Below are positions 21,506 to 59,894 of a stretch of DNA of 59,894 nt, one piece after another. Origin of the DNA: Candidatus Buchananbacteria bacterium (lineage in GTDB: Bacteria > Patescibacteriota > Patescibacteriia > Buchananbacterales > UBA6539); the NCBI GenBank assembly GCA_041664165.1, contig JBAYLH010000007.1:1-59894 (forward strand). The letters are read 5' to 3'. The translations under genes were made by a program, and so were the position numbers. The notes beneath the pieces were generated by a model, which saw nothing but the letters and a program-made list of their open reading frames with translations, was not told the origin of the DNA and searched no databases. Numbering within the stretch: position 1 is the first letter of the stretch; each line of letters begins with the position of its first letter.

Positions 21506-21526
21506 ACAAAAGGTGGTTTAAAAAAA

Positions 21527-22396: not shown

Positions 22397-22508
22397 TCTC
22401 TAAAAAATTAATATTTCTGTAAAAAATCGAATAGGATAAATCACTTTTAACCAAGCTGCCAATCAATGACAACACTTACCATTTCCGCCCGCCCTAGCCG
22501 ATTAAATA

Positions 22509-27296: not shown

Positions 27297-29063
27297 ATGA
27301 AAAAAACTAACAAACCAAAAGGCCGGCAATGGCACCGGCCGCTCTCCAGACAACAGTCAAAGGGAGCCAACGAATCTTATAAAATCGGCAACAAAGCCGA
27401 GGCGAAGCTTAAAATTTATGCTTTAGGGGGCCTCGAAGAAGTCGGCCGGAATATGACGGTTTTCGAATTCGGCTCCGATATTATTATCGTTGATATGGGT
27501 TCGCAATTTCCCGAAGAAGACATGCATGGCATTGATTACATTATTCCCAACGTGACTTCGCTGAAAGGCCGGGAAAAAAATATCCGCGGCGTGATTATCA
27601 CCCACGGCCATTTAGACCATATCGGCGCCGCGCCTCACCTTCTGCCGAAACTAGGCAATCCTTTGGTTATCGGGGCGCCAATGACCATTGCCTTATTGAA
27701 AAAACAGATTGAAAACCATCAGGAAAAATTTACCCCTAAGGTTTTAGAAATAAAATCGCTGAAAACCCAGGTTCAACTGGGCAAATTTAAAATCAATTTT
27801 TTCCAGGTTACCCACAGCATTAAAGATTCAATCGGCGTAATCATTCAAACGCCGGTGGCCAATGTCATCCATCCCGGCGATTGGCGGTATGATTTGGATC
27901 CGGTGGCCGGTCCGAGAACCGATTTGAGATATTTGGCTCGCTGGAATACCAAATTAGCGCCTTCGATTTTAATGATGGAAAGTTTAGGTTCAACCGAATT
28001 GGGCCATCAAGGTTCGGAAAAAGAGGTTTATAAAAATGTTGAAAATATCATCAAAAAAGCCGAAGGCCGGGTCATTTTCGGCACCTTTGCCAGCATGTTG
28101 GAACGGATCGGCCAAGTCATTGAAATTGCCCAAAATCACGGCAAAAAAGTGGCGGTTGACGGTTTCAGCATGAAAACCAACGTCGAAATCGGCAAAAAAT
28201 TCGGCTTTATTAAAGCCAGCAAAAACACTTTAATCGATATTGATAAAATTGACAGCTACCCTAAAAATAAAATTGTGGTAATTTGTACCGGTTCGCAGGG
28301 CGAAGGCCGAGCCGTGCTGAGCCGGATCGCCAACCGCGAGCACCGCTACATTAAAATTGAGCCCAAAGACACCGTGGTCTTTTCTTCTTCAGTGATTCCC
28401 GGCAATGAAAGAACAATTCAATATCTCAAAGACAGCCTGTATCGGCAGGGCGCGAATGTTATCCACAAAGAAATTATGGATGTTCACGCCGGCGGCCATG
28501 GCAAAATTGAAGACATCAAACTTTTACTCAGCCAAGTCAGGCCGGCCTGGCTAATTCCGATTTATGCCAACCATTACCTTTTGCGGGAAGCGGCTAAAGT
28601 CGCCGAAAGCATCGGTTTCAACAAACAAAAAATCTTGGTCGCTGACAACGGCCAAATCATTGAATTCGATAAAGCCGGCGGCCGGCTGACCGATAACCGC
28701 GTCCCGACCGATTACGTTTTCGTTGATGGCTTAGGCGTCGGCGATGTTTCCCACGTCGTTTTACGCGACCGCCAAGTCATGGCCGACGATGGGATGATTG
28801 TCGTCATTGCGACGATCAGTAAAGCAACCGGCACTTTGGTCCAAAATCCCGATTTGATTTCCCGCGGTTTTATCTATATGAAGGAAAACAAAAAGCTGAT
28901 TGAAGAAACCAGGATGAAAGCCAAAAAAATCTTCAAGGAAAATTTAACCGGCGGCATTGATGAAAATTATTACAAAGATAAAATCAGAAATGAAATCGGC
29001 CAATTCCTGTACCAAAAAACTCAAAGGCGACCGATGGTACTTCCAGTAATTATCCAGGTTTAG
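27297..29063 (+). CDS. rnj: Ribonuclease J
   Basis: LGGLEEVGRNM, THGHLDHIGA, VTHSI, GSQGE and HAGGH motifs. Confidence 0.97.
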   Translation: MKKTNKPKGRQWHRPLSRQQSKGANESYKIGNKAEAKLKIYALGGLEEVGRNMTVFEFGSDIIIVDMGSQFPEEDMHGIDYIIPNVTSLKGREKNIRGVIITHGHLDHIGAAPHLLPKLGNPLVIGAPMTIALLKKQIENHQEKFTPKVLEIKSLKTQVQLGKFKINFFQVTHSIKDSIGVIIQTPVANVIHPGDWRYDLDPVAGPRTDLRYLARWNTKLAPSILMMESLGSTELGHQGSEKEVYKNVENIIKKAEGRVIFGTFASMLERIGQVIEIAQNHGKKVAVDGFSMKTNVEIGKKFGFIKASKNTLIDIDKIDSYPKNKIVVICTGSQGEGRAVLSRIANREHRYIKIEPKDTVVFSSSVIPGNERTIQYLKDSLYRQGANVIHKEIMDVHAGGHGKIEDIKLLLSQVRPAWLIPIYANHYLLREAAKVAESIGFNKQKILVADNGQIIEFDKAGGRLTDNRVPTDYVFVDGLGVGDVSHVVLRDRQVMADDGMIVVIATISKATGTLVQNPDLISRGFIYMKENKKLIEETRMKAKKIFKENLTGGIDENYYKDKIRNEIGQFLYQKTQRRPMVLPVIIQV

Positions 29064-29188
29064 GCCAACTTGCCCCGCACCAATTCAAAAGCTAAACTTT
29101 GACTATATTATAAAGCAAGCCGCAGGCGAATCCGCGCCCAAGTATCAATGATCTCTAATTTTATTTTTTTCGCGGAATTCAGTGCGGG

Positions 29189-30528: not shown

Positions 30529-30606
30529 CGCAATGAAATCGGCCAATTCCTATACCAAAAAACCAAAAGAAGGCCACTGGTTTTACCAGCCATTATTCAA
30601 GTCTAA
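30529..30606 (+). repeat. Diverged duplicate of the last 25 codons of rnj
   Basis: Reads RNEIGQFLYQKTKRRPLVLPAIIQV-stop versus rnj RNEIGQFLYQKTQRRPMVLPVIIQV-stop. Confidence 0.9.
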
Positions 30607-30632
30607 ACTAATTTTTGGTACAATAAATCTAT

Positions 30633-30968: not shown

Positions 30969-31059
30969 TGGAAATAAAATAGTCTTCTAGCAAACACAGA
31001 GCGCAGAGTTGACAAAGATTTTAAACCTGCTAAACTGGATTTATTCGTTAACAATTCTA

Positions 31060-31498
31060 AAACCTATGAAACGTGTCCCCCCCCACTTTCTATTCTACTT
31101 AATCCAGAAATCAAATCGAGATAATATATAAAACTTTAAATCAAGAGAATAGAAAGTGAAAAAGAAAGTGGGGGAGGGATTGGGCACGCTTCGTTACGTC
31201 GCTCGCGAACGATGTAACAAGGTGATTACTGCGTTAGTGGCAATCCGGCAGCCTCCGTAACCAAGGGCTAGAGCGTGTTGCCCCGAATCAAGTTCGGGGT
31301 CAAAGCGCTTGAAAGTTTACCCCCACACCTTGGATGAATAATCCAGGGCGTGAAGCCAACTCAAATTAAAATAAATTTAATGGCAACAACTTAACCCAAA
31401 AGGTTAAGGTGTAGGGGTGAATAAGGGTGGTACCGCGGAATAACCTTTCGTCCCTTAAGTATATTTTAGATATACCTAAGAGCTGAGAGGTTTTTTTG
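31060..31498 (+). promoter_or_regulatory. T-box leader/antiterminator upstream of trpS; 5' boundary uncertain
   Basis: AATAAGGGTGGTACCGCGG...TTTCGTCCCTT at 31420-31456, followed by hairpin and T-run to 31498. Confidence 0.8.
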
Positions 31499-31543: not shown

Positions 31544-31729
31544 ATGGCTTGGGGTCAAACTAAAGTCTTGGAAGGGGCGGGAATTTGCCCCTTTTGTCAG
31601 CAACCGAAAGCTGGCACCAAAACCGGCCCGGTCGGCGGCGGCGGCTGGGGCAGCCAATGCAGAGAAGGGATGATAGCTTGCTGCATTAATCCCAATTGCT
31701 CCGAAGGCCGGAAGAATCCGGCCAAATAA
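31544..31729 (+). CDS. Small Cys-rich hypothetical protein (putative Zn-binding)
   Basis: Strong SD AAGGAGG 7 nt before the ATG; CPFC...C...CCINPNC. Confidence 0.55.
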   Translation: MAWGQTKVLEGAGICPFCQQPKAGTKTGPVGGGGWGSQCREGMIACCINPNCSEGRKNPAK

Positions 31730-34694: not shown

Positions 34695-36020
34695 TCAACG
34701 AAGCATTGCCAGCGCTTCGTTGAAAGTTTTAGCATCGCCGACGCGAACCAAAGCGTCAGCGGCCAAACCGGCATGAGTCGCTTCCGCGGCGAACGGCGGG
34801 ATGTGGACTTTGTAGCCCAGCTTTCTCAAAGCGTTGATGAAAGCGCTGTTCTGCGCCCAGCCGCCGATCACGCTAATCTCCGTCGGTGCCGCTAAACGCA
34901 AAACTCCTGCCGTGGCTTCCAATTTTTGATGACAAGCCAGAGCCGCCGACTTGAGCAAACCGGCAATCGCCGCCTGCGGGCTTCGTTTGTTATAGAGTTC
35001 TCTCAGCCAAGTCTTAGCCTCGGCTTCGTCTGTTGGCATGCCAGTCAAGTCATAAGGTCTGGTACAATCAATTACTGTGTTTGCCTGTAGTGCCGCGGTG
35101 GCATAATCCCAATTGGCGAACCCAATCATCCACTTATAGGCTCTGCCAAGCTGAGCGATATTAGTAATCGCCGCCCGACTGGATCCAATCCCTTCAAACG
35201 CAATGCCGGCCGCAAAAGTCTGAGCCGTCGGTTTAATCCCGAGGTGTTTTAGCAGGCAAAACGCTATCCCCAGCCAAGTACCGGACCAAATCACCCAGGG
35301 ACACTGACTGAAACCGACCATTCTGGCCGGCACCGAATCGTGAGTTACGGGCACGATGATCGCCCCGCTGGCACGGTCTCTCACCACTTCGCACCGTCGG
35401 AAAAAATCAGACCGGAATAGCTTGGCAGCTAGATCTTTGCCAAACAGTTTTCGGTATAGCGCTTCTGAGGTGAGTGTCGCCAAACCCTGGCTTTGCCACA
35501 TTACTTGATCGGCTCTTAAACCTACCCGCCAATTATGCAAAACACCTGTCAGCCAGTCAGCCAACGGCACAATTGTGTCGGTATTCCACATTGTACTTCG
35601 GGAGGCAAACATCGCTGCCAGCTGGCAATAAGGCTGGTAAAAATCCACGTTTGCCCCGCCGGTGGCCATGTAAAGCTCAAGGGCGGGAATTTTGGCCGTA
35701 ATTTCGGCCAATACACCTTCCGGAGTTGAGGGGTAATGCCGCGCCTTGAGAGGGAAACCAGACTTCAAAAATACCAGGTCAGCTCCGGGCATCGCGCCGG
35801 CAATTAAGTCACCTCGGCCGGCATAGCTTCTGACCGCTTTCATCATATCTTGCAACCAATCTAGCGGCCAGTAGATCGCTCCGCCTTTCCCAGTTTGCCA
35901 AGGAACCTTGGCCTCAACTACCTTCTGATTGCCAGTTGGACTATACACTCTGACGGTGAAGTCAGAGGTTGCCCCAAATCCGGCCGCCACCACATTTCTG
36001 CTGCCCTTTTTACTATTCAC
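34695..36020 (-). CDS. Divergent FGGY-family carbohydrate kinase (rhamnulokinase-like)
   Basis: AAGFGATS, PVTHDS, IWSGTWLG and VIGGWAQN resemble FGGY/RhaB motifs; SD AAGGAG before the GTG. Confidence 0.65.
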   Translation of the reverse strand: MNSKKGSRNVVAAGFGATSDFTVRVYSPTGNQKVVEAKVPWQTGKGGAIYWPLDWLQDMMKAVRSYAGRGDLIAGAMPGADLVFLKSGFPLKARHYPSTPEGVLAEITAKIPALELYMATGGANVDFYQPYCQLAAMFASRSTMWNTDTIVPLADWLTGVLHNWRVGLRADQVMWQSQGLATLTSEALYRKLFGKDLAAKLFRSDFFRRCEVVRDRASGAIIVPVTHDSVPARMVGFSQCPWVIWSGTWLGIAFCLLKHLGIKPTAQTFAAGIAFEGIGSSRAAITNIAQLGRAYKWMIGFANWDYATAALQANTVIDCTRPYDLTGMPTDEAEAKTWLRELYNKRSPQAAIAGLLKSAALACHQKLEATAGVLRLAAPTEISVIGGWAQNSAFINALRKLGYKVHIPPFAAEATHAGLAADALVRVGDAKTFNEALAMLR

Positions 36021-36137: not shown

Positions 36138-36189
36138 AATTTGTCATTTCCGCCCTGGTCTATTGATGACAAGCTTGATGTGAAATCCC
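36138..36189. repeat. Left end of the composite repeat element
   Basis: aatttgtcatttccgccctggtctattgatgacaagcttgatgtgaaatcc matches the starts of the elements at 51284 and 59573. Confidence 0.7.
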
Positions 36190-36262
36190 AGAAGTTTTGA
36201 TTAAACTCTGGATAAACAAAAAACCGAAGTATCACCTTCGGCTTGGTATTAATTAAAAATTA

Positions 36263-41202: not shown

Positions 41203-41213
41203 AAACTAATTTC

Positions 41214-41340
41214 TTGTCATTCTGAACCCCGACGCAGCAACGCAGTTAGTATGCAGTCGGGGTGAAGAATCTCTAACTATTCGAGTGTGTGAGATTCTTC
41301 GGTCGTCCAAATTTATGCCTAGACTCCCTCAGAATGACAC
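41214..41340. repeat. REP/BIME-like palindromic unit (GTCATTCTGA...GAAGAATCT / AGATTCTTC...TCAGAATGAC)
   Basis: Terminal inverted repeats tgtcattctga/tcagaatgaca; similar unit at 48206-48317. Confidence 0.75.
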
Positions 41341-43000: not shown

Positions 43001-43336
43001 CTACTGCATCGGCTTAAAGCGTTCCTCGACGACGACGGAAAGATCGAACGTCTTCTCTCCACCGCCCGGCACATTAATGACGGCTGCCAAGCCTTGCGTG
43101 CACGGCAACCTCTTGGGATCAACCGGTCCCATGAAATTGATCGGGACTGAGAAAGCACAGCCATCCTTTCCGCAGGGTGTGCACATGACGGCGCGGCCGT
43201 CGTGCAAGCGCAAGTAACCACTCCCGCGACAAGTGCCGAGGCAGGCATTACCGCCGCCGCCTTGATGCGCCGGGAATACTACTCCAGCCGCTTCTGCCGT
43301 TACCGGTGCGGCCGCCAATCCATCCGTATTCGTCAT
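43001..43336 (-). CDS. Hypothetical small protein with CxxxC/CxxC pairs
   Basis: SD AAAGGAG before the ATG; own TTGACA promoter near 43497; GC-richer than flanks. Confidence 0.55.
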   Translation of the reverse strand: MTNTDGLAAAPVTAEAAGVVFPAHQGGGGNACLGTCRGSGYLRLHDGRAVMCTPCGKDGCAFSVPINFMGPVDPKRLPCTQGLAAVINVPGGGEKTFDLSVVVEERFKPMQ

Positions 43337-43929: not shown

Positions 43930-44090
43930 GATTAACAACCGACATGATTTTTGAATCCCTTGAATTCAAATAACAAATTAACTCAGGCCGCCGAAAAATC
44001 TTTTGTTTTACAGGCGGTTTTTTGTTTGCTAAACTTAAATAACTACCTAATTCCTAATCCCTAATCCCTAATCCCTAATTTCCTAAATAT

Positions 44091-45380: not shown

Positions 45381-45441
45381 CTTATCTTGCTTATCTCGCT
45401 TATCTCGCTTATCTTGCTTATCTCGCTTACCACTTATCTTG
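45381..45441 (+). repeat. 9-bp tandem repeat (CTTATCTYG)n between glyA and folD
   Basis: About six copies visible. Confidence 0.85.
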
Positions 45442-47754: not shown

Positions 47755-47850
47755 TTGTTTAAATCAGAAATCAGAAATAAGAGATAAAAAATAAGAAATA
47801 AGAGACAGAGATAGAACTTATCTCTGATTTTTTTATTTATTGATTTCAGC

Positions 47851-48138: not shown

Positions 48139-48205
48139 ATACTAAAAGCGTAGCGCTGGCGGGCAAAAAAGTCAAAGTGCTGTATGCAAGTGCGAAAAAA
48201 AATTT

Positions 48206-48715
48206 GTCATTCTGAGTTCCGATCGCCGGCCGTGATGGCAGGTAGGCGACCAGAACGAAGAATCTCGACTCAATGAGACAAACCGAGATCCTTCGGCCTC
48301 CGGCCTCAGGATGACAATTCGGCGTATAGCTGTTTTAATTTCCAGGCTAAGCCTCAAGACAAGTCTCAGTCTCCAAGCTGTGTCGTCTAAAGACCAACAC
48401 TTGTGTTGACCGCTAATACTACAAAACAAGTTTTGTTCACCTCGCTTGACGCGAGTCGAAGCGGGCTCGCCTCGATTCGGCGAAGCGGGCTCGCCTCGCT
48501 TCGACTCGGAATCGACTCGGCGAAGCGGGCTCGCCTCGACTCAACCGCCCGCTTAACGTGAGTCGAAGCGGGTTCTCCGGGCTGCATCGCACTTGTGCTA
48601 CCAATCGGATAACCCCGCACTAAAACTTAGTATTTGTAACTGCTCGGCTTCGCCTCACAGACAAATACTAAAAAAAAGACCAGCTAAGCTCGTCTTAAAC
48701 GACAAGTAGCTGGTC
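48206..48715. repeat. Composite repeat element copy 1 (REP-like unit, GAAGCGGGCTCGCCTCG array, conserved hairpins/terminator)
   Basis: Shares 48393-48440 and 48627-48715 with the element at 51284-51938. Confidence 0.8.
48671..48715 (-). terminator. Intrinsic terminator after purC
   Basis: GACCAGCTA...TAGCTGGTC stem followed by T-run on the - strand; near-identical one at 51891-51938 after purH. Confidence 0.7.
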
Positions 48716-48797
48716 AGAATAGTTTTCCTCCTGTTGCGCGACCTCAGCCGACGTAATCGTCGAACATTTGGTCTATGGCAATAGACTCCCGCCGAGC

Positions 48798-49733
48798 TTA
48801 GGCGACGAATTCTCGTCCCATAAGGTGACGATAAGCTTCGAGATAGGCTTTCCGCGTATTGCTGACAACTTCATCCGGAAGCCTCGGCGGCGGGGAATTT
48901 TTGTTCCAGCCAAACTGTGTCAACCAGTCGCGCAAATTTTGTTTATCCCAACTGACTGGCGACCTGCCAACCACGACTCCAGCGGCCGGCGAGAAACGCG
49001 ACGAATCCGGCGTGTGCACTTCGTCGATAAGAATCAGTTTCCCATCACGGGTGCGGCCGAATTCATACTTGGTGTCGAGGAGGCTGATACCGCGTCGCAA
49101 CGCCCAAAGGGCAGCGGCGGAATAAAGCATCAGGCTCCGCTCTCGAATAGCGACGGCAGTCCGCCGACCCAGAATTTCCACGGCTTTCCCAAATGAAACA
49201 TTCTCGTCGTGCAGACCCTGTCGTGCCTTAGTGGCTGGAGTGAAAATCGGCGGCTCAAGCGGACTGGCTAGTTGCAGGCCTTCGGGCAATTTAATCCCGC
49301 AGACCAAACCAGTCTTTTGGTAATCGGTCAAGGCCGAACCAAGCAAGTAGCCACGAACCACGCACTCCACTGGCAAGGCTTCGACCTTGCGTACCAATAT
49401 GCTTCGACCGGCCAAAATCTTGGCCAGCGACTTGAGCGTGGGACGAAGCTTCACAATCTCATCCCACACTCCGGAAATCAGATGGGTCGAAAGTCCCAGA
49501 CCTTGGGCAAACTGCAATCCCAAAAGCGAAAGGTCGGTCAAAATCTTGCCCTTGCCAGGGACTGCCGGAGTCTGGTTCCAATCGAAGGCCGATACTTCGT
49601 CGCTGGCAACCATCAATAGTATGCCGCCGCCGACTTCGACCATGACGCGAACCTTACCGACCTTATTGACCATTAAGCCCTGACTGACCAAGGCAGATCG
49701 AATAGCACTGCGAGTAACACCTGTTTCATTCAT
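48798..49733 (-). CDS. purC: SAICAR synthetase
   Basis: GKVR, SAFD, PGKG, VECVVRGY, FTPATKA, DTKYEFG and DEVHTPDSSRF motifs; SD AAAGGA before the ATG at 49733. Confidence 0.92.
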   Translation of the reverse strand: MNETGVTRSAIRSALVSQGLMVNKVGKVRVMVEVGGGILLMVASDEVSAFDWNQTPAVPGKGKILTDLSLLGLQFAQGLGLSTHLISGVWDEIVKLRPTLKSLAKILAGRSILVRKVEALPVECVVRGYLLGSALTDYQKTGLVCGIKLPEGLQLASPLEPPIFTPATKARQGLHDENVSFGKAVEILGRRTAVAIRERSLMLYSAAALWALRRGISLLDTKYEFGRTRDGKLILIDEVHTPDSSRFSPAAGVVVGRSPVSWDKQNLRDWLTQFGWNKNSPPPRLPDEVVSNTRKAYLEAYRHLMGREFVA

Positions 49734-49813
49734 GATAGTTCCTTTCATCTTTGAGTTTTGCCTGCCGGCGATCAAGTCTCACAATAGACATGAACCGGTT
49801 TTTAGCATCCACG

Positions 49814-51007
49814 TTAGATAATCCGGCCCGCTATCGGCGCACCGTTTTGGGCACACTCTACTGCCGCTTCAATGAAGCGCATACCTCTAACACCATTCTC
49901 AACACCGGCATAGTTTACTCCGGCGTGGATTGAGGGTAAACCGCGGTAATAGCGCCGGACATCGACTTCGAAAAAGTCATAGAGCCGACACCAGGCGTCA
50001 TGCAATCCTTCCGGATGACCACTGGGCCAATAAGTTTTGAGTAGCTCTCTTGGCACGGCTTTCAAAAATCCGTCATGGGCGCAGACATTGCCGCGCCAAT
50101 ATACCAGATCCGGTTTGTTAATCCGACAGACGGTCAGCTCTTCGGGTTTTTCCTGATCCCAAATGACACTACCTTTGTCGCCGTTGACTTCGAACTGCAA
50201 ATGGTTTTTATGACCCACCCGGACTTGCGACGCCCGGATATCAAATGGCGTTCCGTCAGCCAACTGGGCGCAGACCGTAAAGTCGTCATCGAGTCGGCGT
50301 TGACCAATCAAACTGGCTAGCCGGGCAAAGCTAATCTGACTGACAGGCAATCCGGTCACAAATTCCAGTTGCATCAGCGCGTGCGTACCGATGTCGCCGC
50401 CGCAGCCGCTCATACCGGCCTTAGCCGGATCGGTACGCCATTCGGCTTGCTGGTTTCCCATTTTTTCCAGTTGAGTTACTAGCCAATCTTGGTCGTATTC
50501 GGCCGTGGCTTTGATCACCCGGCCAATCAAACCTTGCTGGATAATGAACCGGGCAAAACGCGCGGTCCAATGGCCCCAATAGCCGTGCATCAACATGAAT
50601 GGCACCCCGGTCTTAACAACCGCCGCGGTCAATTCATCGGCTTCCGCCACAGTCATAGTCATCGGCTTTTCGCAGACGACCGGAATTCCAGCTTTCACAA
50701 ACGCCATTGCCTGTTCAAAATGACAGAAGTTTGGCGTCGTGATGACCGCGAAATCAATCCGGTCATTTGCCGGCAAGCCTTGCTGGTGAGCCAGCATCTC
50801 CTGCCAACTGGCATAGCCGTGCAGTGGATAGCGCCACTGCTTAGCCGCCGCCAGAGCAGTCTCCGGATCCTGGTGCAAGGCGGCATAAACTACCCGGCGC
50901 GTCCCCGACATGAAAATCGCGGCTTCATGGTGGGACGCAATAAAGGCCTGATGACCGCCAACCACACCAGCCTGAAGAACTTGATTCCTTCCGACTTTTT
51001 TCTTCAT
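49814..51007 (-). CDS. Gfo/Idh/MocA-family oxidoreductase
   Basis: ITTPNFCH, VVCEKPM, GCGGDIGTHA and GHPEG motifs; ATG at 51007 chosen. Confidence 0.9.
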   Translation of the reverse strand: MKKKVGRNQVLQAGVVGGHQAFIASHHEAAIFMSGTRRVVYAALHQDPETALAAAKQWRYPLHGYASWQEMLAHQQGLPANDRIDFAVITTPNFCHFEQAMAFVKAGIPVVCEKPMTMTVAEADELTAAVVKTGVPFMLMHGYWGHWTARFARFIIQQGLIGRVIKATAEYDQDWLVTQLEKMGNQQAEWRTDPAKAGMSGCGGDIGTHALMQLEFVTGLPVSQISFARLASLIGQRRLDDDFTVCAQLADGTPFDIRASQVRVGHKNHLQFEVNGDKGSVIWDQEKPEELTVCRINKPDLVYWRGNVCAHDGFLKAVPRELLKTYWPSGHPEGLHDAWCRLYDFFEVDVRRYYRGLPSIHAGVNYAGVENGVRGMRFIEAAVECAQNGAPIAGRII

Positions 51008-51283
51008 CGCTTTTCTCCCTCTCAACTAGGTTAGCCCAAATCTCAAAACAGAAAGTCTGTTCAGCTATACTCTAACAGTAGAGATAATTAACTCTTCTAC
51101 TGAATTGATGTCAAAAAACAAAGCCTTTCCTTGCCCCGCCGTCGCCCCAAGCTTATCAAGCGGCAAAAGCGAGCCTCTAAAAAAGACCCGAAACCGGTTT
51201 TAAATTAGCAAAAAAACCGCTCAATGTCAAGGCAATTCGAAAATTTTTTGTCCCTTAAATACCCAAAAAATCAAAAATATTTT

Positions 51284-51938
51284 AATTTGTCATTCCACAC
51301 TGGTCTATTGATGACAGGCTTGAGGCGGAATCCAGGAGTCCTTTTTTGCCGCCCATGGCGACATAAGCCCAGGGCTACGCCTCATAACAAATCTCGGATT
51401 CCCAAGCCGCGCCGTCTGGCGGAGACCAACACTTGTGTTGGCCGCTAAAACTACAAAACAAGTTTTGTTCGCCTCGATTCGGCGAAGCGGGCTCGCCTCG
51501 ATTCCGATCGCTTCCGAGTCGAAGCGGGCTCGCCTCGATTCGGCGAAGCGGGCTCGCCTCGATTCCGATCGCTTCCGAGTCGGAGCGGGCTCGCCTCGCT
51601 TGACGCGAGTCGGAGCGGGCTCGCCTCGCTCGACGCGAGTCGGAGCGGGCTCTCCACTAGTCAAGTTAAGCTGCCGGACTAAAGTCCGGCCTGCGTGGAG
51701 AACCCAGCTTATCCCGCTCCAAGTTTGCGAACCGGCTTTAATTAATATTATCGTCTAGTTGGCGCAAAGATCGCCTTACCTGAAATAAACTCAATTATCG
51801 GCTGGTAAGATTAATAATCATGTTTAATTAGGAACTTGGTGCGGGATTAGTATTTGTAACTGCTCGGCTTCACCTCGCGGACAAATATTAAAAAAAAGAC
51901 CAGCTAAGCTCGTCTTATATTGACAAGTCTAACTGGTC
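51284..51938. repeat. Composite repeat element copy 2
   Basis: First ~220 bp nearly identical to 59573-59790; internal array of six (A/G)GCGGGCTC cores; right end shared with copy 1. Confidence 0.9.
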
Positions 51939-51967
51939 GAGATACTCCCTCCGCCTCTTGGCGAGGC

Positions 51968-53632
51968 TTAATGGCCGGCAAAACCGCGATCTTCCGGCGG
52001 CAAGTAAGCCACCGAAACGCCATTTTTCGAAAAGTACTCCTGCACTTTGGGCAGCTCTTTGCCGTCGGCCGGAACTACGCCGCCGACACAACCGGCTTGC
52101 ACCAAAAGTTCTGGACCTTCCAATGGTTCGCCCTCAAACCCGTGTTCAGCATACGGAAAGAAGGCATCGGAAGCAAAGACCGCACCGTTTGTATCGTGGC
52201 CGGAACGTCTGGCGCGATCCAGACAAAGCTGAACGCAGGCAATGCGATCCTGCTGGCCACAACCCAAACCGATAAGCATGCTATCTTTGGCTAAAGCAAC
52301 CGTGTTACTAGTAGCCCGCCAAGTTATTACCTGTGCCAATAAAAGATTGCCTAGCTGAACAGAAACGAACTGCTCCTCTGTTGTCCGCCAAGTGATATCA
52401 AGGCTGCTCTGGTCGAAAATAAACCACGGCGCTTTCTGCTGGAGCCAGCCGCTAGGAACCGGCCGCCGCATCCAAACTTCCGACGACATCGGCGGATCAA
52501 GTAATACTGGATTGGAAAACAACCGGCGCTTCTCCCGCTTGCCGAGCAATTCAATACTGGTGGCTGAAAACTCGGGAGCAAAAATCACGTCTAACCCCCA
52601 ATTCTTCCGCCCCACCAAGTTAACCAGATCTTTCGGCACGGCAAAAATCGCCGTACCCAATTCATCGGTAATTTCAAAGTTGGTTACCAGCTCGCCGCCC
52701 ATGCACGCGATCGGATCGCCGAGCAAAGCATTCTGCAAAGCCACGTACGGATATTTCCAATCAAATGCCGCACCGCACGGATTGCCGTGTTTACAAATCA
52801 CGGCGATATAAGGCACCGTGCCGTGGAAGTTACGGCGAAATGACTCAGCCAAAAACCGCAGGATGCTGATGGCTTTATCACCATCAGCAAAGCTAATGTA
52901 GCTGGGATTGCCAGAAACAACGGAAAACCTGGCTAACGCCAGCGGATCATGCGGTCTCGGCGACAGGTTTCCATACAGATACGCCGGATTCTGGTCACGA
53001 TTTTCCCCATAAGCCACCTCACGCAACCGTTGACCAACCACACCATCAAATTCGCCACCACTGTGAAAACGGGCGGCGTCAAGGCAATAACCAGACACGA
53101 TCGCTTCGGCCTTAGCCCGCAGGTATTGACGGGTTTTTGCGTCAACGTCGCCAATGGTCTTGAGCGACTCAGTAACCAAGGCTCGGTCTTCGGGATCACA
53201 AATAACGATCCGACCGCCTTTGGCTGCCGACCGAACCATGGTTGGTCCGCCGATATCAGTCTGTTCCACGACAGCGTCAACCGTTACACCCGCTTTGGCG
53301 ATTTCCTCGGCGAGCGGATAGAAATCACAGCAGACCATCTCAATCCGGGGAATGTTCAGTCTGGCCAGTTCGTCTCGGTCTTCCTGACAATCACGGGCCA
53401 AAAGGCCGGCGTGAACTTCACGCGATAAAGTCACTACCCGGTGACCCAAAATCGCACCGCCGCCGACCAGATCGGCCACGTCTTTGACTTCCAGTCCAGC
53501 CTCACGCAAATGGCGACAAGTACCACCTGAAGCCAGAAGATGCCAGCCCAAACCAACTAGCTTTTGGGCAAACCCGGTAATACCGTCCTTACTGTAGACG
53601 CTTAATAGCGCCCATTTATCTGTTTCACTCAT
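51968..53632 (-). CDS. purH: Bifunctional AICAR transformylase/IMP cyclohydrolase
   Basis: ALLSV, SGGT, DIGGPTMVRSAAK, YGENRDQ, KHGNPCG, GQQDRI and ASDAFFP motifs. Confidence 0.92.
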   Translation of the reverse strand: MSETDKWALLSVYSKDGITGFAQKLVGLGWHLLASGGTCRHLREAGLEVKDVADLVGGGAILGHRVVTLSREVHAGLLARDCQEDRDELARLNIPRIEMVCCDFYPLAEEIAKAGVTVDAVVEQTDIGGPTMVRSAAKGGRIVICDPEDRALVTESLKTIGDVDAKTRQYLRAKAEAIVSGYCLDAARFHSGGEFDGVVGQRLREVAYGENRDQNPAYLYGNLSPRPHDPLALARFSVVSGNPSYISFADGDKAISILRFLAESFRRNFHGTVPYIAVICKHGNPCGAAFDWKYPYVALQNALLGDPIACMGGELVTNFEITDELGTAIFAVPKDLVNLVGRKNWGLDVIFAPEFSATSIELLGKREKRRLFSNPVLLDPPMSSEVWMRRPVPSGWLQQKAPWFIFDQSSLDITWRTTEEQFVSVQLGNLLLAQVITWRATSNTVALAKDSMLIGLGCGQQDRIACVQLCLDRARRSGHDTNGAVFASDAFFPYAEHGFEGEPLEGPELLVQAGCVGGVVPADGKELPKVQEYFSKNGVSVAYLPPEDRGFAGH

Positions 53633-53670
53633 CGCTTCCTTCTCCTTTTTCTTGCTCCTGCATTAGGAGC

Positions 53671-54168
53671 TTAGGGTTGTTCTTCTTTAGCGCCACAACC
53701 AGCACACTGATCAGCAGACGCTTCTTCAAGCATTGCCACTATCAGACCATCGGCATGTTGCAAAACCTCTTCGGTTACTAAGATTTGACAACCAACCACC
53801 CGAAGGGCTACAGCGATTGCATCACCGGGCCGGCAGTCAATCCGAGTTAAGGTTTCCTTTTCCGGTTCCGAATAAATAAGCTGGCCGATAAAGGTGCCAT
53901 CTACTAATTCGGAGATAAGAACTTCGGCTCTAGTCGAACTCCCGACCATTGTTTTGGCAACCAGGTCATGTATTAGCGGCCGAGGCGGCTTATTACAATC
54001 CAACGCCAGACGAATGGCAGTGGCTTCGAATCGGTTTACAACAAGAACCAAATCCGTTTCACCACTTGCCATCGTAACCAAAAAACGGCCGCTATCCTCA
54101 ATTACCCCGACACCGGAGATTCTGGCAGTGTAATAGGTAATCCCATCTCTAGTCACTCTCATCTTCAT
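53671..54168 (-). CDS. Bifunctional nuclease (DUF151/BFN) family protein
   Basis: EATAI, PRPLIHDL, DGTFIG and IDCRPGDAIAVALR motifs; SD GGAAAGGAG before the ATG at 54168. Confidence 0.85.
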   Translation of the reverse strand: MKMRVTRDGITYYTARISGVGVIEDSGRFLVTMASGETDLVLVVNRFEATAIRLALDCNKPPRPLIHDLVAKTMVGSSTRAEVLISELVDGTFIGQLIYSEPEKETLTRIDCRPGDAIAVALRVVGCQILVTEEVLQHADGLIVAMLEEASADQCAGCGAKEEQP

Positions 54169-54178
54169 CGCTCCTTTC

Positions 54179-55657
54179 CTATTCCCCTGCTTCCCACCAG
54201 AGGGTTTTTTCCGCTTCCGCTTGCGCAATCTTGACTGCGTCGCCGACATAGAGTTGCGGGTTACGCAGCAATTCCTTAGTACTGACCGGAACTTTCTTCC
54301 AGGCTCGCCTAATGGCTTTATTTTCTTTCTGACCGACCAATGAGTCCATCGCCATTCCCAAGTCCTGATTCGTCAAACGCGCTAACGGCACCACGGTCCG
54401 GTTGACAAACTCGTGAGCGCCGATAAAGCCCTGCTGTTGCAAAGACAAATAGAGCAGCTCAGCCATTACGACATTAGCATCGACGGCAAAATTTTGCCGA
54501 CAACGTTCAGAGTCAATCACCAGACTCTTCAAAATCCGCAGCGTGGTTAACATCTGTTCATACGTGTAGACCATAACTTCGGAATAACCCCGCATCACGC
54601 AAGACCATCGTAGATCACGCTGCAAATCACAAACCAAAGTCAGCAGCAGCCGATTGAAAGCGGCAATGACAATAACGTGCATGCCGGCGTCATTTTCGGC
54701 CGCAATCGGATTAGTCATCTTGTGCGCCATCGTCGAAGAGGACGAAGACGCCGAAGTCAATTCGCCGCACATTGACGATTGCAGAATTCTGACATCTTCA
54801 CCCAGGTTAGCCATCGCACCGGAAAGCAAAACCATTTCGCTGTAACAGCGATAGGCACCTTCCGGCGGCGTGATCTGGGTTGTAATGGCCGCTTGCGGCA
54901 AGCCAAGCAAATCCAGCATCATTTTTTCGGCATTGACATCGCCAAACAGCTCCCGCTGCGCGGCAAAACTGCCAACCGCACCGGAAACCTTACCCGGCAC
55001 TTCATGAGCATACCGGCCGGCTTGCCGCGCCGTCAGGACAAATCGGCTATGCAGATTCGCCAGCCAAAAACCGACAGTTACCGGCAAGGCGGTCTGTAAA
55101 TGAGTCCGACCGGCGCAAACCACTTCGGCATTTTCGGCAATCCTTTGCCGCCAGAGCTCATCAACTTCGCAAAGCTTCGGCCAGAAAACCAGATCGTAGG
55201 TCTTGGCAATTTGCAACGCGTATGCCGTGTTAATAATGTCATACGACGTCGCGCCAAAGTGCAGCCAACGTTGCAGTTCCGGCGGCAGATACTTCCGCAT
55301 CAGCCGCAGTAAAGCCAGGATGTCGTGGTTGGTTTTGTTCAGCGCCTGCTTTTCTTCGTAGTCCTGCATCGTCGTCGTGATACTGAAAAGCAATTTCTGT
55401 AACCGACGAACCGTCAGGTACTTAGCATGCTGTTTCGGCATAACACCAATTTTGGCCAAAGTCAAAAGCCAAAACCATTCGACAATGACGAGCCAGCCAG
55501 CCCACTGATCGTAGCCGAGGTAAGGCCGTAAATCATTGGGTTGGTAGCGGGGATCACCAGGCATCTGTAAATTCAGATTGCCTTTTTTCCTTTCAACAGC
55601 GGTCAAAGCATCCAAAGCTTCGGTCAGCCATTTTTTACCATCAGTCAATGCAATCAT
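54179..55657 (-). CDS. purB: Adenylosuccinate lyase-like protein (fumarase/ASL superfamily), divergent
   Basis: LHFGATSYDI, GRTHLQ, GKVSGAVG, TTQI and SSTMAHKMTNPI signatures. Confidence 0.82.
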   Translation of the reverse strand: MIALTDGKKWLTEALDALTAVERKKGNLNLQMPGDPRYQPNDLRPYLGYDQWAGWLVIVEWFWLLTLAKIGVMPKQHAKYLTVRRLQKLLFSITTTMQDYEEKQALNKTNHDILALLRLMRKYLPPELQRWLHFGATSYDIINTAYALQIAKTYDLVFWPKLCEVDELWRQRIAENAEVVCAGRTHLQTALPVTVGFWLANLHSRFVLTARQAGRYAHEVPGKVSGAVGSFAAQRELFGDVNAEKMMLDLLGLPQAAITTQITPPEGAYRCYSEMVLLSGAMANLGEDVRILQSSMCGELTSASSSSSTMAHKMTNPIAAENDAGMHVIVIAAFNRLLLTLVCDLQRDLRWSCVMRGYSEVMVYTYEQMLTTLRILKSLVIDSERCRQNFAVDANVVMAELLYLSLQQQGFIGAHEFVNRTVVPLARLTNQDLGMAMDSLVGQKENKAIRRAWKKVPVSTKELLRNPQLYVGDAVKIAQAEAEKTLWWEAGE

Positions 55658-55996
55658 GATCTTTCTCCTCTACCCTCAGTTTCTATCCCAAACTTCATCC
55701 AAATTCAAAATGTCAAAAAACAAAGTCCCTCCTTGCCTCGTCGTAACCACAAGTTTACCAAGTAACAGAGGCGGGCAGGGACTTGCAAGTGCCTTTAAAT
55801 TAACAAAAAATCACCCTTAATGTCAAGGTAAATTTTTTAGGCTGATAACCCTAAAACTTAATTCAAAAATAAGGATTCTCAGCTGCTTGTTTCCCCCGGC
55901 TGGGACATTTTTCCATCGGCGATTGAAAAAAATTCTCCTCCCTGCTAAACTAACCTTGCCTCCTGAATTTATAATTCATAATCTATAATTTCACTC

Positions 55997-57046
55997 ATGT
56001 CTTTCTCCATTGGCATCGTCGGCCTGCCCAACGTCGGCAAAAGCACCCTCTTCAAGGCTTTAACCAAAAAACAAGTTGATATCGCTAATTACCCCTTTTG
56101 CACCATCGCGCCCAACGTTGGCGTGGTTACCGTACCGGACGAGCGCTTGGATCAACTGTCAAAATTATCCAATTCCGCTAAAACCGTTTACACTACCGTC
56201 GAATTCGTTGATATCGCCGGCTTGGTCAAAGACGCCCACAAAGGCCAGGGTTTAGGCAACCAATTTTTAGCCCACATCCGGGAAGTTGACGCCATTGCCC
56301 AAGTCTTGAGAGAATTTTCGGATCATAACGTCATTCATGTTGATGGCAAAGTCGATCCGGAGTCGGACAAAGAAACTATTAATTTGGAATTAATTTTTGC
56401 CGATTTACAGACGGTTGACAAAAGAATTTCCAAAAACCACAAAGACTTGCGCGCCAATTTAAAAGAGGCCAAAGAACTTCAGTCGGTTTTGGCTAAACTA
56501 AAAACCGGACTGGAAGCCGGCCATTTGGCGAATGAAATTATTACCGAGGAAAAAGAAAAATTAATGGCTCGCGAATTGAATTTATTGACGATGAAACCGA
56601 TGCTTTATGTTTTGAACGTTGACGAAGATAAGGTCGTAGACGATTCCGATTACATTACGACCTCGGCTAAAATTGAAGCTGAGCTGTCCGAACTTTCGCC
56701 AGAGGAAGCCGCAGAATACCTCAAAGAGTTAAAATTAAATTCCTCGGGCTTAGACCGCCTGATTAAAAAATCTTACGAAACTTTGGATTTGATTACTTTT
56801 TTAACCACCGGCCCGACCGAATCGCGCGCTTGGACGATCAAAAAAGGGACGAAAGCGCCCCAGGCCGCCGGCGTCATTCATACTGATTTTGAAAGCCATT
56901 TTATCCGCGCCGAAATCATCAACTGGCAGGACTTGCTCAAAGCCGGCAGCGAAGCCAAGGCTAAAGAGCTTGGTTTGGTTCGGATTGAAGGCAAAGACTA
57001 CGTCATGCAAGACGGCGATACCGTCTATTTCCGAACCGATGTCTAG
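55997..57046 (+). CDS. ychF: Redox-regulated ATPase YchF
   Basis: GIVGLPNVGKST, NYPFCTIAPN, DIAGL, GLGNQFL and EGKDYVMQDGD motifs. Confidence 0.98.
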   Translation: MSFSIGIVGLPNVGKSTLFKALTKKQVDIANYPFCTIAPNVGVVTVPDERLDQLSKLSNSAKTVYTTVEFVDIAGLVKDAHKGQGLGNQFLAHIREVDAIAQVLREFSDHNVIHVDGKVDPESDKETINLELIFADLQTVDKRISKNHKDLRANLKEAKELQSVLAKLKTGLEAGHLANEIITEEKEKLMARELNLLTMKPMLYVLNVDEDKVVDDSDYITTSAKIEAELSELSPEEAAEYLKELKLNSSGLDRLIKKSYETLDLITFLTTGPTESRAWTIKKGTKAPQAAGVIHTDFESHFIRAEIINWQDLLKAGSEAKAKELGLVRIEGKDYVMQDGDTVYFRTDV

Positions 57047-57134
57047 ATTTTATCAATTCCCCTCGCCCCGCTTCAGCGGGGAGAGGGTTCAAGTCACTTT
57101 TCAGTGGGTGAGGGGAAAAAAGATAAACTTTGAA

Positions 57135-58307
57135 TCAGAACTGACGCTTAAAAATATAAATCTGCCGCCAGACTTTCTGGCCTTCGCGGCTGTAAATTAA
57201 TTTATCGGCATTAACTTGGCTAAAACCAAGTTTTTTGATTTGGTCTAAAATCGGCATTTCTAAAATTTGGCTGCCCACCCGAAAAGACGGAAAAATCATC
57301 ACCACTTTGCCGCCATTATTTAAAATCTTTCGAAACTCGGAAAACGCCTCAATATACAGCTCGGCTAAGCCCTTAATATTTTTTTCAACTTCGTGCCGGT
57401 CTTCACTGCCTCGCAGCGGCGGGCCCAAATGCGGTTCAGTCACAATGGCATCAACATTACTGACTTTACTGGATACATTTTTAACATCAACTTGAAAAAC
57501 TTGAAACTGATTTCTGCCTGCCCGCCGAAGAGGCGGATTTTCTGTTTTCTGTTTTCTGTTCTCTGTTCTCTGTTCTCTGTTTTCTGCTCTCTGTTCTCTG
57601 TTCTCCAAAAGCCACTCTAAGTTCTTCTTGGTATCTTTAATCGCTTTTTCAGCAATATCCGAACCAATCATTTTGTAGCCCAAAAGTAACCCTTCCTGAA
57701 GCATCGTGCCGGAGCCGCAAAACGGATCTAAAATTGTTTCGCCGACTGGCAGCTGAGCCAAGTTAATCATAATCTTCGCCAGCTTCGGCGGCATGCTGCC
57801 CGCGACTAAATCGCGGCTTGGCCGGCCGTAATCGCGGAAACTATAGTCTTCAAATTCCTGAACCGCGCCGGTTTCACCCAGCCACTTATTGCCTAAAATT
57901 AAAAATTCATGGCATTTATTTTTTGTTACCACTACCGATGACAAAGCTTTGTCTCGACTGACCACTAACCGGCAGCTGATGCCGGCGTCTTTTAATTCTT
58001 TTTTAATTTCCATGCCGAAATTATCGGGTTTAGCATCGTAATAACTAATGCCGAAGTTAAGCTTGTTTTCGGCTTTTATCTGTTTCAATTTTTCTATCGT
58101 TACTTTTTTACTGATTTGGCTGCCGATAATGGTGCCGATTTTAATCGTGCCACCTAACCGCGCTAAAATTTTCTGGCAGTCAATTTCTTCATTTTCCAAA
58201 ATCAAAAAAGTACTGGTTTCGGCAACGACTTTGGCGTGAGGCAAAACCGCTAGAATTTCCGCCGCGGAAAGCTTGGGGTTATGGCCTAAAATGAAAACAT
58301 ACTGCAT
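57135..58307 (-). CDS. Trm11/Trm14-like RNA methyltransferase with an in-frame repeat insertion
   Basis: DYGRPSRD, SMPPKLAKIMINLA, ILDPFCGSGT and IVTEPHLGP motifs. Confidence 0.85.
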   Translation of the reverse strand: MQYVFILGHNPKLSAAEILAVLPHAKVVAETSTFLILENEEIDCQKILARLGGTIKIGTIIGSQISKKVTIEKLKQIKAENKLNFGISYYDAKPDNFGMEIKKELKDAGISCRLVVSRDKALSSVVVTKNKCHEFLILGNKWLGETGAVQEFEDYSFRDYGRPSRDLVAGSMPPKLAKIMINLAQLPVGETILDPFCGSGTMLQEGLLLGYKMIGSDIAEKAIKDTKKNLEWLLENREQRAENREQRTENRKQKTENPPLRRAGRNQFQVFQVDVKNVSSKVSNVDAIVTEPHLGPPLRGSEDRHEVEKNIKGLAELYIEAFSEFRKILNNGGKVVMIFPSFRVGSQILEMPILDQIKKLGFSQVNADKLIYSREGQKVWRQIYIFKRQF

Positions 58308-58434
58308 ATTATTAAAAAGATATTAATAAGGCAATTGAACTTAAAACCTACCAACTTATTAACTTATCAACTTAAAAACTTACTAAACGACTCTCCAGCG
58401 CCAACTTACCAACTTAAGTATACCACATCCGTTC

Positions 58435-58483
58435 AAAAAAAGACCCCGGAAAGCCAAGGTTTGAAAACCAAGGTTTCCCGGGG
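58435..58483 (-). terminator. Probable terminator after the 58512-59363 gene
   Basis: CCCCGGAAA...TTTCCCGGGG stem with A-run on the + strand. Confidence 0.55.
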
Positions 58484-58511
58484 AAAATGTATCAAGGGCA
58501 GCTCGACATCC

Positions 58512-59363
58512 TTACTTCGGAGGACCGGAGAGCGCCATTCTTAAACGGCGCGCAAATATGCGTGCCAAAAGACTGCCTTTCCTAAACGGCTTTAATCGAG
58601 CCGCAATCGCTTTTTCCACATCTTCGGGAGAAATAACTGGTGCCGGCGGCTTTGACTGCGGGTTAGTAACAGTTTCCTCTGCAACCGGCGGCTTTGACTG
58701 TGAGCTGGTCGCGGCTTGGCGGTAAATCACCATGAGCTTTTGGACATCATCAAGCAAACTCGCCGAAGCGTACCGACCCTCTATTCCGTCAATGGCCTTG
58801 CGGATCTCGTCCAGCTCTTCTCGCGCCGTTTTCTCGGCCATGCACTCTTGAGCCGCTTCCTGCAGGTCTTTGAGCTCCGCCCGACCGGCCAAAAAGCGGC
58901 AAAGCAGGTCGCCGTCGGCAACGTGAGACGTGCCCGGCACGTCCGGCTGGGTGGTAAAGATCTCATCCAACCGGCCTTTCTCACCCCGTGCGATCACGCG
59001 CAAGACATAGACAATGTGGGCGCAGACAACCTCTACGATTTCGGCCAACTGTCCTGAATCGCAAACGAAGGCTTTGCTCAATTCAATCCCATTCTGATTT
59101 ACTTCCAGGATAGCCGGATAGCTTAGAGAATTACCTCGCGGCCCCGACCATTTGACAAAAATCGCGATTACACCGCGGTCTGTGCCCAGATCTGCCAGAT
59201 CAAAAGAGATTGTACCCTCCCTTTCTTGACCCAGATCAGCCGATGTCGGTACTGAACTACCCAGCAACCAAAAACGAGTTGCTGGATCCTTTGGACTCAT
59301 TGCTATCGTCGTTGAGTCCTGTCTTCGGTCTACTGCAAATAATTGACTCAGATCCATTTCCAT
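58512..59363 (-). CDS. Hypothetical protein
   Basis: 283-aa ORF, SD GAGGAG (start may be ATG 59357), own TTGACA promoter near 59520; no family recognised. Confidence 0.7.
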   Translation of the reverse strand: MEMDLSQLFAVDRRQDSTTIAMSPKDPATRFWLLGSSVPTSADLGQEREGTISFDLADLGTDRGVIAIFVKWSGPRGNSLSYPAILEVNQNGIELSKAFVCDSGQLAEIVEVVCAHIVYVLRVIARGEKGRLDEIFTTQPDVPGTSHVADGDLLCRFLAGRAELKDLQEAAQECMAEKTAREELDEIRKAIDGIEGRYASASLLDDVQKLMVIYRQAATSSQSKPPVAEETVTNPQSKPPAPVISPEDVEKAIAARLKPFRKGSLLARIFARRLRMALSGPPK

Positions 59364-59572
59364 CTCCTCATTAGCGCCAGCTCATTGCTGCGCGCCAGTC
59401 AAGGAACAATCGGTGTCTACCAACGTAGCACACCTGAGGCAGCCGCTCCTGCCCTGCGAGGTTGCAAAACCACAGTGGTTTTGAACTCTAAATCCTAGTC
59501 TATTTTTCAAGATTTGTCAATGCCAACAACACTTTAAATTCTTTAAATACCAAAAAATCAATAAAACCTTTC

Positions 59573-59894
59573 AATTTGTCATTCCGCACTGGTTTATTGA
59601 CGATAGGCTTGATGCGGAATCCAGGAGTCCTTTTTTGCCGCCCATGGCGACATAAGCCCAGGGCTACGCCTCATAACAAATCTCGGATTCCCAAGCCGCG
59701 CCGTCTGGCGGAAACCAACACTTGTGTTGGCCGCTAAAACTACAAAACAAGTTTTGTTCACCTCGATTCGGCGAAGCGGGCTCGCCTCGCTTGACGCGAG
59801 TCGAAGCGGGCTCGCCTCGCTTGACGCGAGTCGAAGCGGGCTCGCCTCGCTTGACGCGAGTCGAAGCGGGCTCGCCTCGCTTGACGCGAGTCGA
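59573..59894. repeat. Composite repeat element copy 3, truncated by the window end; includes a 30-bp tandem repeat
   Basis: TTGACGCGAGTCGAAGCGGGCTCGCCTCGC repeated exactly three times from 59791 plus a partial fourth. Confidence 0.92.

Follow-up and report, generated by a model that had tools for sequence, protein, structure and literature searches.

A stretch of 59,894 nucleotides of chromosomal DNA from an ultra-small groundwater bacterium that belongs to Patescibacteria (also called Candidate Phyla Radiation, here CPR), hereafter the window, contains three copies of a composite intergenic repeat: c1 (48206-48715), c2 (51284-51938) and c3 (59573-59894), the last of which reaches the window end. 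The composite is a real repeat mosaic in a CPR genome and, in its resemblance to the NIMEs of Neisseria and the BIMEs of Escherichia coli, a variant of an already described kind. Most probably, it consists of short, hairpin-forming, non-autonomous DNA repeats which accrued in the interval from an intrinsic terminator to the following promoter and were then partly copied between loci. Neisseria and enterobacteria are well known for intergenic repeat mosaics; CPR genomes are otherwise compact, and our literature search found no account of such mosaics in CPR bacteria. An original prediction, made from the sequence of the window, had presented the three copies and a left-end fragment as one element with defined ends. 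All of the pieces it described are present where it had placed them. Instead of a single element, however, they represent at least two independent repeat families, oriented hairpins at the left ends (family A) and the units of the arrays (family B), each of which also occurs separately (at 36140 and 41213-41340, and at 21425-21505, respectively).

Modular structure of the composite copies

The arrays are built on a 17-nt core, GAAGCGGGCTCGCCTCG, for which 15 matches with up to three mismatches were found in the window compared with 0.17 expected. Twelve of them lie in the composites, three in c1, five in c2 (two with one mismatch) and four in c3, while the remaining matches are located on the minus strand at 21443-21499 (two) and, with three mismatches, at 17007. 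A 57-nt middle is 93% identical across c1, c2 and c3, and the right end, an 11-bp inverted repeat plus a hairpin with A8, is 94% identical between c1 and c2. The copies c2 and c3 share 230 nt at 95% identity, in a stretch that begins upstream of the left-end hairpin in a promoter-like region. Within the arrays, three linker types with lengths of 7, 13 and 20 nt are reused, as the original prediction had described. The array of c3 has a period of 30 nt repeated 4.1 times at 100% identity, that of c2 a period of 61 nt repeated 2.1 times at 98% together with a 30-nt period repeated 2.6 times. From copy to copy, entire modules and the number of units vary. The modular layout of the original prediction is supported.

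In c1, the left end (48203-48317, both strands) is an inverted pair of hairpins resembling the NTS of Neisseria and the Ssn-related motifs (SRMs), with a plus-strand hairpin at 48206-48264 (TTGTCATTCTGAG...CGAAGAATCTCG) and its minus-strand partner at 48287-48315 (TTGTCATCCTGAGGCCGGAGGCCGAAGGATCTCG). The middle (48393-48438, plus strand) contains the near-palindromes CAACAC-TT-GTGTTG and CAAAAC-AA-GTTTTG, 29 nt apart. It is followed by the array (48439-48583, plus strand), whose units consist of an arm CTCGCCTCG, a loop or linker, and an arm CGAAGCGGG, with exact cores at 48458, 48482 and 48522 and then a degenerate last unit. The right end combines an inverted-repeat hairpin (48627-48671; TTAGTATTTGT...ACAAATACTAA) with a terminator-like structure on the minus strand (48670-48715), formed by a hairpin at 48678-48715 (GACCAGCT...AGCTGGTC) and T8 at 48670-48677.

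The left end of c2 carries an NTS/SRM-like hairpin at 51286-51335 (plus strand; TTGTCATTCCACAC...GAGGCGGAATCCAGG) and, at 51394-51430 on the minus strand, a degenerate inverted partner (...GGGAATCCGAG), a weak assignment guided by the layout of c1 and of the hairpin pair at 41213-41340. The middle (51425-51470, plus strand) has the c1-type pair of near-palindromes, and the array (51471-51655, plus strand) comprises three exact cores, two one-mismatch cores and a partial sixth unit, including the 61-nt tandem duplication and the 30-nt repeats. A variable segment at 51656-51846, which is not in c1, precedes the inverted-repeat hairpin (51847-51891), recognised by repeat comparison with c1, and the terminator-like structure at 51890-51938, with a hairpin at 51898-51938 and T8 on the minus strand. 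In c3, the NTS/SRM-like hairpin at 59575-59624 (plus strand; TTGTCATTCCGCAC...GATGCGGAATCCAGG) lies next to a promoter-like site on the minus strand (59520-59492, TTGACA-17-TAGGAT) immediately outside the left end. The middle of c3 (59714-59759, plus strand) belongs to the 57-nt family, and its array (59760-59894, plus strand) consists of at least four identical 30-nt units up to the window end.

A groundwater assembly in ENA holds a near-identical contig of 99.7 kb; in 20,288 nt of alignment with the window there are three substitutions and not a single gap. The region is present in two groundwater runs, the second of which contains a diverged strain with 10 substitutions and 3 gaps over 870 nt. 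Short-read metagenome assembly may generate arrays or near-identical copies as artefacts; the location of c3 at the window end, with the ENA contig stopping at most 15 nt from there by coordinate arithmetic, and the breaks of Logan contigs in every array would be in agreement with this. The two assemblies, three single-nucleotide differences apart, nevertheless share c1 and c2 without gaps and with equal array lengths, and in Logan contigs of the two runs the unique flanks continue into the modules, confirming the junctions. Furthermore, c2 and c3 are not fully identical, and the array unit is found in many unrelated public metagenome-assembled genomes (MAGs). We therefore regard an assembly artefact as extremely unlikely; misassembly of near-identical copies, named in the original prediction as a refutation, is unlikely for c1 and c2. 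The depth of Logan contigs over the modules is 4-10x the flank depth, and many alternative module joints with other orders are seen, which points to further copies in other combinations in the genome or the community. Part of the variable region of c2 (51625-51785) reaches ~8x flank depth and is thus itself multi-copy.

With regard to transcription, the terminator-like hairpin followed by T8 is found on the gene strand 82 nt past the stop codon of purC and 30 nt past that of purH, and promoter-like boxes follow the left end, both in agreement with the original prediction. A consensus scan for promoters and terminators lists the promoter-like site of c3, while the terminator hairpins of c1 and c2 are unlisted, as their loops exceed the 3-8 nt to which the scan was restricted. 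Judging from sequence and fold, the purC and purH transcripts would probably end at the terminator-like hairpin and T8. The remainder of the composite may be selfish or neutral repeat DNA that piled up where it was harmless and then spread by recombination between copies. The non-autonomous element with an expanding hairpin array, one of the options raised in the original prediction, comes close to this interpretation; its notion of a single element does not hold. Effects of the mosaics on transcription or recombination are putative.

The folding energy of the composites is well below that of shuffled sequences and is stronger on the gene strand, with z = -9.5 on the minus and -6.1 on the plus strand for c1. 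This would also be expected if the composite encoded a large structured non-coding RNA, in whole or in part, or if it served the pur genes as a structured 3' untranslated region. Any palindromic repeat gives such an energy, however, and most of the composite lies downstream of the terminator-like hairpin on the gene strand. The copies vary by whole modules and unit number, a mini-array at 21425-21505 is reversed relative to its flanking genes, and the array unit is also located within protein-coding genes in both orientations. No Rfam 15 family matched the composites even at E values up to 10, apart from hairpin-type microRNA models as chance matches; the sole match with gathering score in the window is a tRNA elsewhere. 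The middle motif gave no match in JGI metagenome contigs, where the composite as such was thus not found outside this organism. A structured RNA, as considered in the original prediction, is hence very unlikely.

The array unit in the window and in other CPR genomes

In other genomes, the family B unit consists of an arm CTCGCCTCG, a loop of 4-25 nt and an arm CGAAGCGGG, usually as two hairpins that share the central 18 nt. From this context it follows that the linkers in the window are hairpin loops. The arm-loop-arm context was found at ~29 loci in GTDB genomes, from Saccharibacteria, Microgenomates, Moranbacteria, Wildermuthbacteria, Komeilibacteria, other low-GC MAGs and one Omnitrophota MAG. 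The core had 117 genome matches in all, most of which are single chance matches in high-GC genomes. Seven matches fell in viral contigs; each is single, lies in a high-GC phage contig and lacks the arm-loop-arm context, and they were likewise dismissed as chance.

In the window itself, the minus-strand mini-array at 21425-21505 lies between two minus-strand genes and comprises two cores and a degenerate unit, terminating in TTAGTATTT. Its segment 21443-21505 is 97% complementary to 48476-48538 in c1, and relative to the flanking genes its orientation is opposite to that of the composites. A degenerate relative of the array unit is located upstream of leuS at approximately 16990-17060. Both, as well as the hairpin pair at 41213-41340, had been missed in the original prediction.

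The family B unit sits in intergenic DNA and, in other CPR genomes, also in frame within conserved genes, in either orientation. The in-frame host genes encode LeuRS, peptidyl-tRNA hydrolase (Pth), UvrC (with the unit in its GIY-YIG domain), ribosomal protein L10, a family-2 glycosyltransferase (GT2) and YrdC (GTDB loci L009, L059, L111, L103, L100 and L087). The inserts add ~10-30 residues, e.g. EAGSPR..., ARRARFA... or SEASPLR, and Pfam domain matches run across them. LeuRS of the window shows a 10-amino-acid gap exactly where the element-encoded stretch sits in LeuRS of L009, and no in-frame insertion of family B was found in the genes of the window. In L009, LeuRS has a second GC-rich insert, which is encoded over a palindrome (TCTCCCCCTGCCCGAGGGGGAGA).

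Rickettsia palindromic elements (RPEs) insert in frame in conserved protein genes. The additional residues in conserved genes of other CPR genomes resemble this behaviour; in the window, by contrast, no such insertion was found, and tandem arrays are not known from RPEs. As family B is widespread in CPR and occupies intergenic as well as in-frame coding positions in either orientation, it behaves as a DNA-level selfish palindromic element, which fits these positions, and not as an RNA gene. In the genome studied here it has expanded by tandem duplication, and since the tandem units are perfect, the arrays would have grown by slippage or unequal exchange. Our literature search found no description of the family B unit for CPR. 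A CPR-wide double-hairpin element that inserts also into genes is the more novel lead of this analysis, and the in-frame insertions are relevant to the annotation of CPR genomes and to protein alignments.

The BIMEs of E. coli consist of clustered REP palindromes with a limited repertoire of linker motifs between them. The arrays in the window are similar in their palindromic units, in the few reusable linkers (three types with one 17-nt core), in the variable number of units and in their position 3' of transcription units. They differ from REP sequences in lacking a GTAG-type head, and the unit sequence is unrelated. Proteins were examined by Pfam scans over 70 kb of DNA, the 60-kb window and a 10-kb extension of the contig past window position 1, and no RAYT (Y1 transposase) was found in either part. 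BIMEs are mentioned in the study of the Neisseria nuclease SsnA discussed below (PMC11893778).

The alternation of short conserved repeats with short linkers also recalls the guide-RNA arrays of CRISPR or TIGR systems, the latter of which are known to exist in CPR bacteria. In the window, the linkers comprise three reused types only, which pair with the flanking arms, and there are neither two alternating repeats of 8-12 nt nor variable spacers of 9 nt. In addition, the Pfam scans of the 70 kb found no Nop-domain or Cas protein. Considering the architecture and the missing proteins, guide arrays were rejected; the probability of this explanation is negligible.

Oriented left-end hairpins and a GIY-YIG gene on the same contig

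Family A hairpins consist of a 5' TTGTCAT, a 5-bp arm, a loop of 11-49 nt, the complementary arm and a 3' ATC-Y-N-G; in the left ends, the loop measures 15-45 nt. In the window, 11 such hairpins were found compared with 1.3 in shuffled sequences. Of the TGTCAT sites in the window, 10 are intergenic and 24 genic; a complementary 5-nt arm plus C follows within 80 nt at seven of the former and at one of the latter. The seven intergenic copies and five more around a GIY-YIG gene outside the window carry TTGTCAT (GTGTCAT in one case), the 5-bp stem and then a C. The stems vary yet stay complementary (ATTCT/AGAAT, ATCCT/AGGAT, ATTCC/GGAAT, ATTTC/GAAAT, ATTGC/GCAAT). Mostly, the hairpins are arranged as inverted pairs, as at the left end of c1 and in the free-standing pair in a divergent intergenic region at 41213-41340. 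A solo left-end hairpin at 36140-36190 (plus strand; TTGTCATTTCC...GTGAAATCCCAG) is located between the terminator of a racemase gene and the promoter-like boxes of gene 34695-36020, and its stem differs from that of c2 and c3 by a two-sided change from ATTCC/GGAAT to ATTTC/GAAAT. The latter gene had been labelled FGGY in the original prediction, a family that Pfam does not support, as it finds none. DNA folds of single units gave no significant gain over shuffled sequences; the structural argument for the hairpins therefore rests on their recurrence and the complementary changes and not on energy.

The NTS of Neisseria is defined as CGTCATTCCCGCGMAVGCGGGAATCYRG, and Ssn-related motifs adjoin small single-domain GIY-YIG genes (PMC11893778). 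Family A shares with the NTS/dRS3 and SRM sequences an oriented hairpin whose ATTCC-type palindrome is immediately preceded by GTC and followed by a C, as well as the occurrence in multiple, intergenic copies, often in inverted pairs (PMC11893778). SsnA binds its hairpin in single-stranded DNA only, and its cut falls a few nucleotides upstream; the C directly after the palindrome weighs most for binding and the three nucleotides upstream weigh most for cutting, while the identity of the loop is non-essential and extensions are possible at the loop position (PMC11893778). In Neisseria, cutting at the hairpin reduces the integration of transforming DNA that carries the motif (PMC11893778). The main text of the SsnA study does not contain the terms 'Candidatus', 'CPR' or 'Patescibacteria' (PMC11893778). 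An exact match to the Neisseria NTS consensus, CGTCATTCCCGCGAAAGCGGGAATCCAG, together with an inverted partner, was found in another Patescibacteria MAG (L127/L128:17687-17767), where the strict SRM pattern match at 17687-17714 is this consensus itself.

The original prediction had proposed a search for GIY-YIG genes flanked by the same ends, and one was found on the same contig 5.7 kb outside the window. The single-domain gene (L130:25619-25915) lies 5.66-5.96 kb left of window position 1, carries a recorded Pfam GIY-YIG match and encodes 98 amino acids. It is called at 88 amino acids; the start at an upstream ATG was chosen in this analysis, as it restores the motifs YYIYIM and LYTGVT. One family A hairpin is located directly upstream of the gene and two inverted pairs downstream. 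This corresponds to the layout described for ssnA, a GIY-YIG gene of ~95 codons with hairpins on both sides (PMC11893778). Within the loop of the upstream hairpin, at 25570-25598, the opposite strand carries an array-family unit. The 98-amino-acid protein has more than 8000 homologues of 95-100 amino acids in many phyla, many of which are named GIY-YIG nuclease family protein. By analogy with SsnA, the 98-amino-acid protein, a putative nuclease, is a likely candidate for the partner of the family A hairpins. It may bind the hairpins in single-stranded DNA and cut just upstream of them. Should its action be that of SsnA, cleavage of the hairpins would occur in the single-stranded state, and the lowered integration of motif-bearing DNA could apply here as well; the mosaics would then be marks with an influence on how single-stranded DNA recombines or integrates at the genes beside them.

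The surroundings of this gene (window 27-9959 and L130:20062-29933) encode a 3310-amino-acid protein and, beyond the window, TrbL-like (1402 amino acids), PrgI-like and TraC-like proteins. The cluster looks type IV secretion-like, with the GIY-YIG gene inside.

The combination of hairpins with other units is reminiscent of NIMEs, intergenic arrays that mix dRS3-type hairpins with other units and vary in content and length between loci (PMC1797815). In NIMEs, 20-bp dRS3 inverted repeats (ATTCCC-N8-GGGAAT) flank each unit of 50-150 bp, the arrays have been proposed to promote recombination of flanking genes, and in 2007 they were stated not to occur outside Neisseria (PMC1797815). While dRS3 is found between all NIME units, the ATTCC-type hairpins of the window are confined to the left end of the composite and do not separate its modules, and the rest of the composite consists of another repeat family and unique modules.

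Several observations weigh against the interpretation of the composites as a mosaic of these repeats. The middle and the 11-bp inverted repeat fit neither family A nor family B, and family B has no link to any enzyme. The conserved positions of the family A hairpins are partly built in by the search, which required GTCAT, a perfect 5-bp stem and a C directly after it. The published SRM pattern, HGTCWYN(0-2)YYVSBRHN(0-5)WNVSBRGN(0-2)RNCYNB, gave no strict match in the window. It misses the copies in the window because their loops of 11-49 nt exceed the maximum of 5 nt in the pattern (~3-5 nt in Neisseria) and their stems are shorter; with the loop relaxed to 60 nt, the sole match in the window lies inside gfo and is chance-like. 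Since the published pattern matches none of them, the left-end hairpins are variants of the SRM/NTS type and not strict members. Finally, the 98-amino-acid protein has no NCBIfam match, and a search against PDB sequences gave a best E value of 0.1, which is not significant (the family that defines Ssn is CDD cd10448).

On one contig, Ssn-type hairpins and a candidate Ssn nuclease gene are thus joined by a second palindromic family that elsewhere in CPR is found in essential genes. It is conceivable, although we hold this further-reaching proposal to be doubtful, that an undescribed CPR family of mobile double-hairpin elements (CTCGCCTCG-loop-CGAAGCGGG) inserts intergenically as well as in frame in essential genes, and that some genomes combine it with Ssn-type hairpins and a GIY-YIG nuclease into NIME-like mosaics which control the sites at which incoming single-stranded DNA can recombine. 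Natural transformation has been used for genetics in a CPR lineage. If the link between nuclease and hairpins is true, the Ssn system would reach a lineage with natural transformation, which would provide a handle on gene gain and rearrangement.

Neighbouring genes and further features of the window

The window encodes housekeeping functions (leuS, uvrA, ksgA, trpS, RNase J, glyA, folD and purB/H/C) and type IV secretion pilin-like genes. Relatives of the pur region are few and distant, with PurH 55-63% identical. In L129 (PurH 57% identical) the neighbourhood is the same, with purB-purH-purC gaps of at most 26 nt and without gfo and a 95-amino-acid gene that adjoins c1 in the window. In L132, the corresponding sites are gaps of 245 and 378 nt with neither repeat family. 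L134 and L136 both have the order purB-purH-gfo-purE, followed in L136 by purC and a LigD-like gene; two pattern scans of their purH-gfo spacers (318 nt in L134, 192 nt in L136) found neither repeat family. The mosaics hence appear to be lineage-specific fillings of intergenic spacers.

The promoter and leader of gfo (51109-51230, minus strand), with two TTGACA boxes, lie outside the mosaic. Positions 51109-51214 of this leader show homology to 55704-55776 (minus strand) of the window and, in L134, to the leaders that precede gfo and purB. Given the synteny in L134 and L136 and the leader homology to L134, c2 has the purH terminator on one side and an older promoter on the other, and gfo has not been shuffled recently. 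Besides the two TTGACA boxes, the gfo/purB leader comprises a GC-rich hairpin as well as a small hairpin with a T-run after it. No Rfam family matches this leader, which the purine genes could share as a regulatory element.

A rival reading takes the copies for recombination scaffolds at the borders of mobile gene cassettes, as has been proposed in Neisseria for NIMEs and minimal mobile elements; they would provide portable homology, a terminator and a promoter with which genes could be exchanged. The genes adjoining the copies are GC-richer than the others (0.53-0.54 vs ~0.44), gfo has its closest named homologues in Planctomycetes and Verrucomicrobia (~50% identity), and the identity between c2 and c3 includes promoter-like sequence upstream of the hairpin, all of which would suit such scaffolds. 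The 95-amino-acid gene beside c1, which is not at that site in L129, L132 or L136, would do so too and looks like the only lineage-specific gene. The GC-rich pur genes, however, are native, as the nearest PurH homologues are all from CPR and purB, purH and purC are syntenic in relatives, and a foreign origin of these genes was rejected on the same grounds. In L134 and L136, gfo keeps its position between purH and purE/purC although its spacers showed neither repeat family in the scans, which leaves the cassette shuffling of the original prediction weak at best, and its leader is common to L134. No integrase or recombinase was found by Pfam in the 70 kb, in accordance with the original prediction that none is visible. 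Recombination scaffolds are therefore rather unlikely, and we favour a mosaic of accrued repeats. An integron cassette array was also rejected, as no integrase family was found in the Pfam scans of the 70 kb; attC motifs were not searched for.

Several other features of the window were observed. Upstream of a small Cys-rich open reading frame (31546-31729) and of trpS (31850), the plus strand at 31286-31458, including GGGTGGTACCGCG, matches a T-box leader over the full model length and below threshold (31.8 bits compared with a gathering score of 93, E = 3.9e-05). Within the 881-nt gap that precedes trpS there is also a long imperfect inverted repeat at 31059-31202 (CCCCCCCACTTTCTATTCT...AGAATAGAAAGTG...GTGGGGGAGGG), which is matched by microRNA-type hairpin models only. 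Adjacent minus-strand genes at 20872-23162, two of which are type IV secretion pilin-like, contain three paralogous segments in tandem with 75-78% identity over 283 nt; the minus-strand mini-array lies between two of these genes. An 83-nt segment at the 3' end of the RNase J gene (28989-29071) recurs with 76% identity at 30532-30614, just past a serpin gene, and may represent a partial duplication. A minus-strand open reading frame of 111 amino acids (43001-43336), which is a gene call in the ENA record, has an unusually high GC content of 0.60 and no Pfam family. Short tandem repeats with units of 7-9 nt are found within a methyltransferase gene (57541-57605, nine times TCTGTTC), at the start of folD (45381-45429, five times CTTATCTCG) and in intergenic regions at 44046-44086 (five times CCTAATC) and 47761-47803 (six times AAATAAG).

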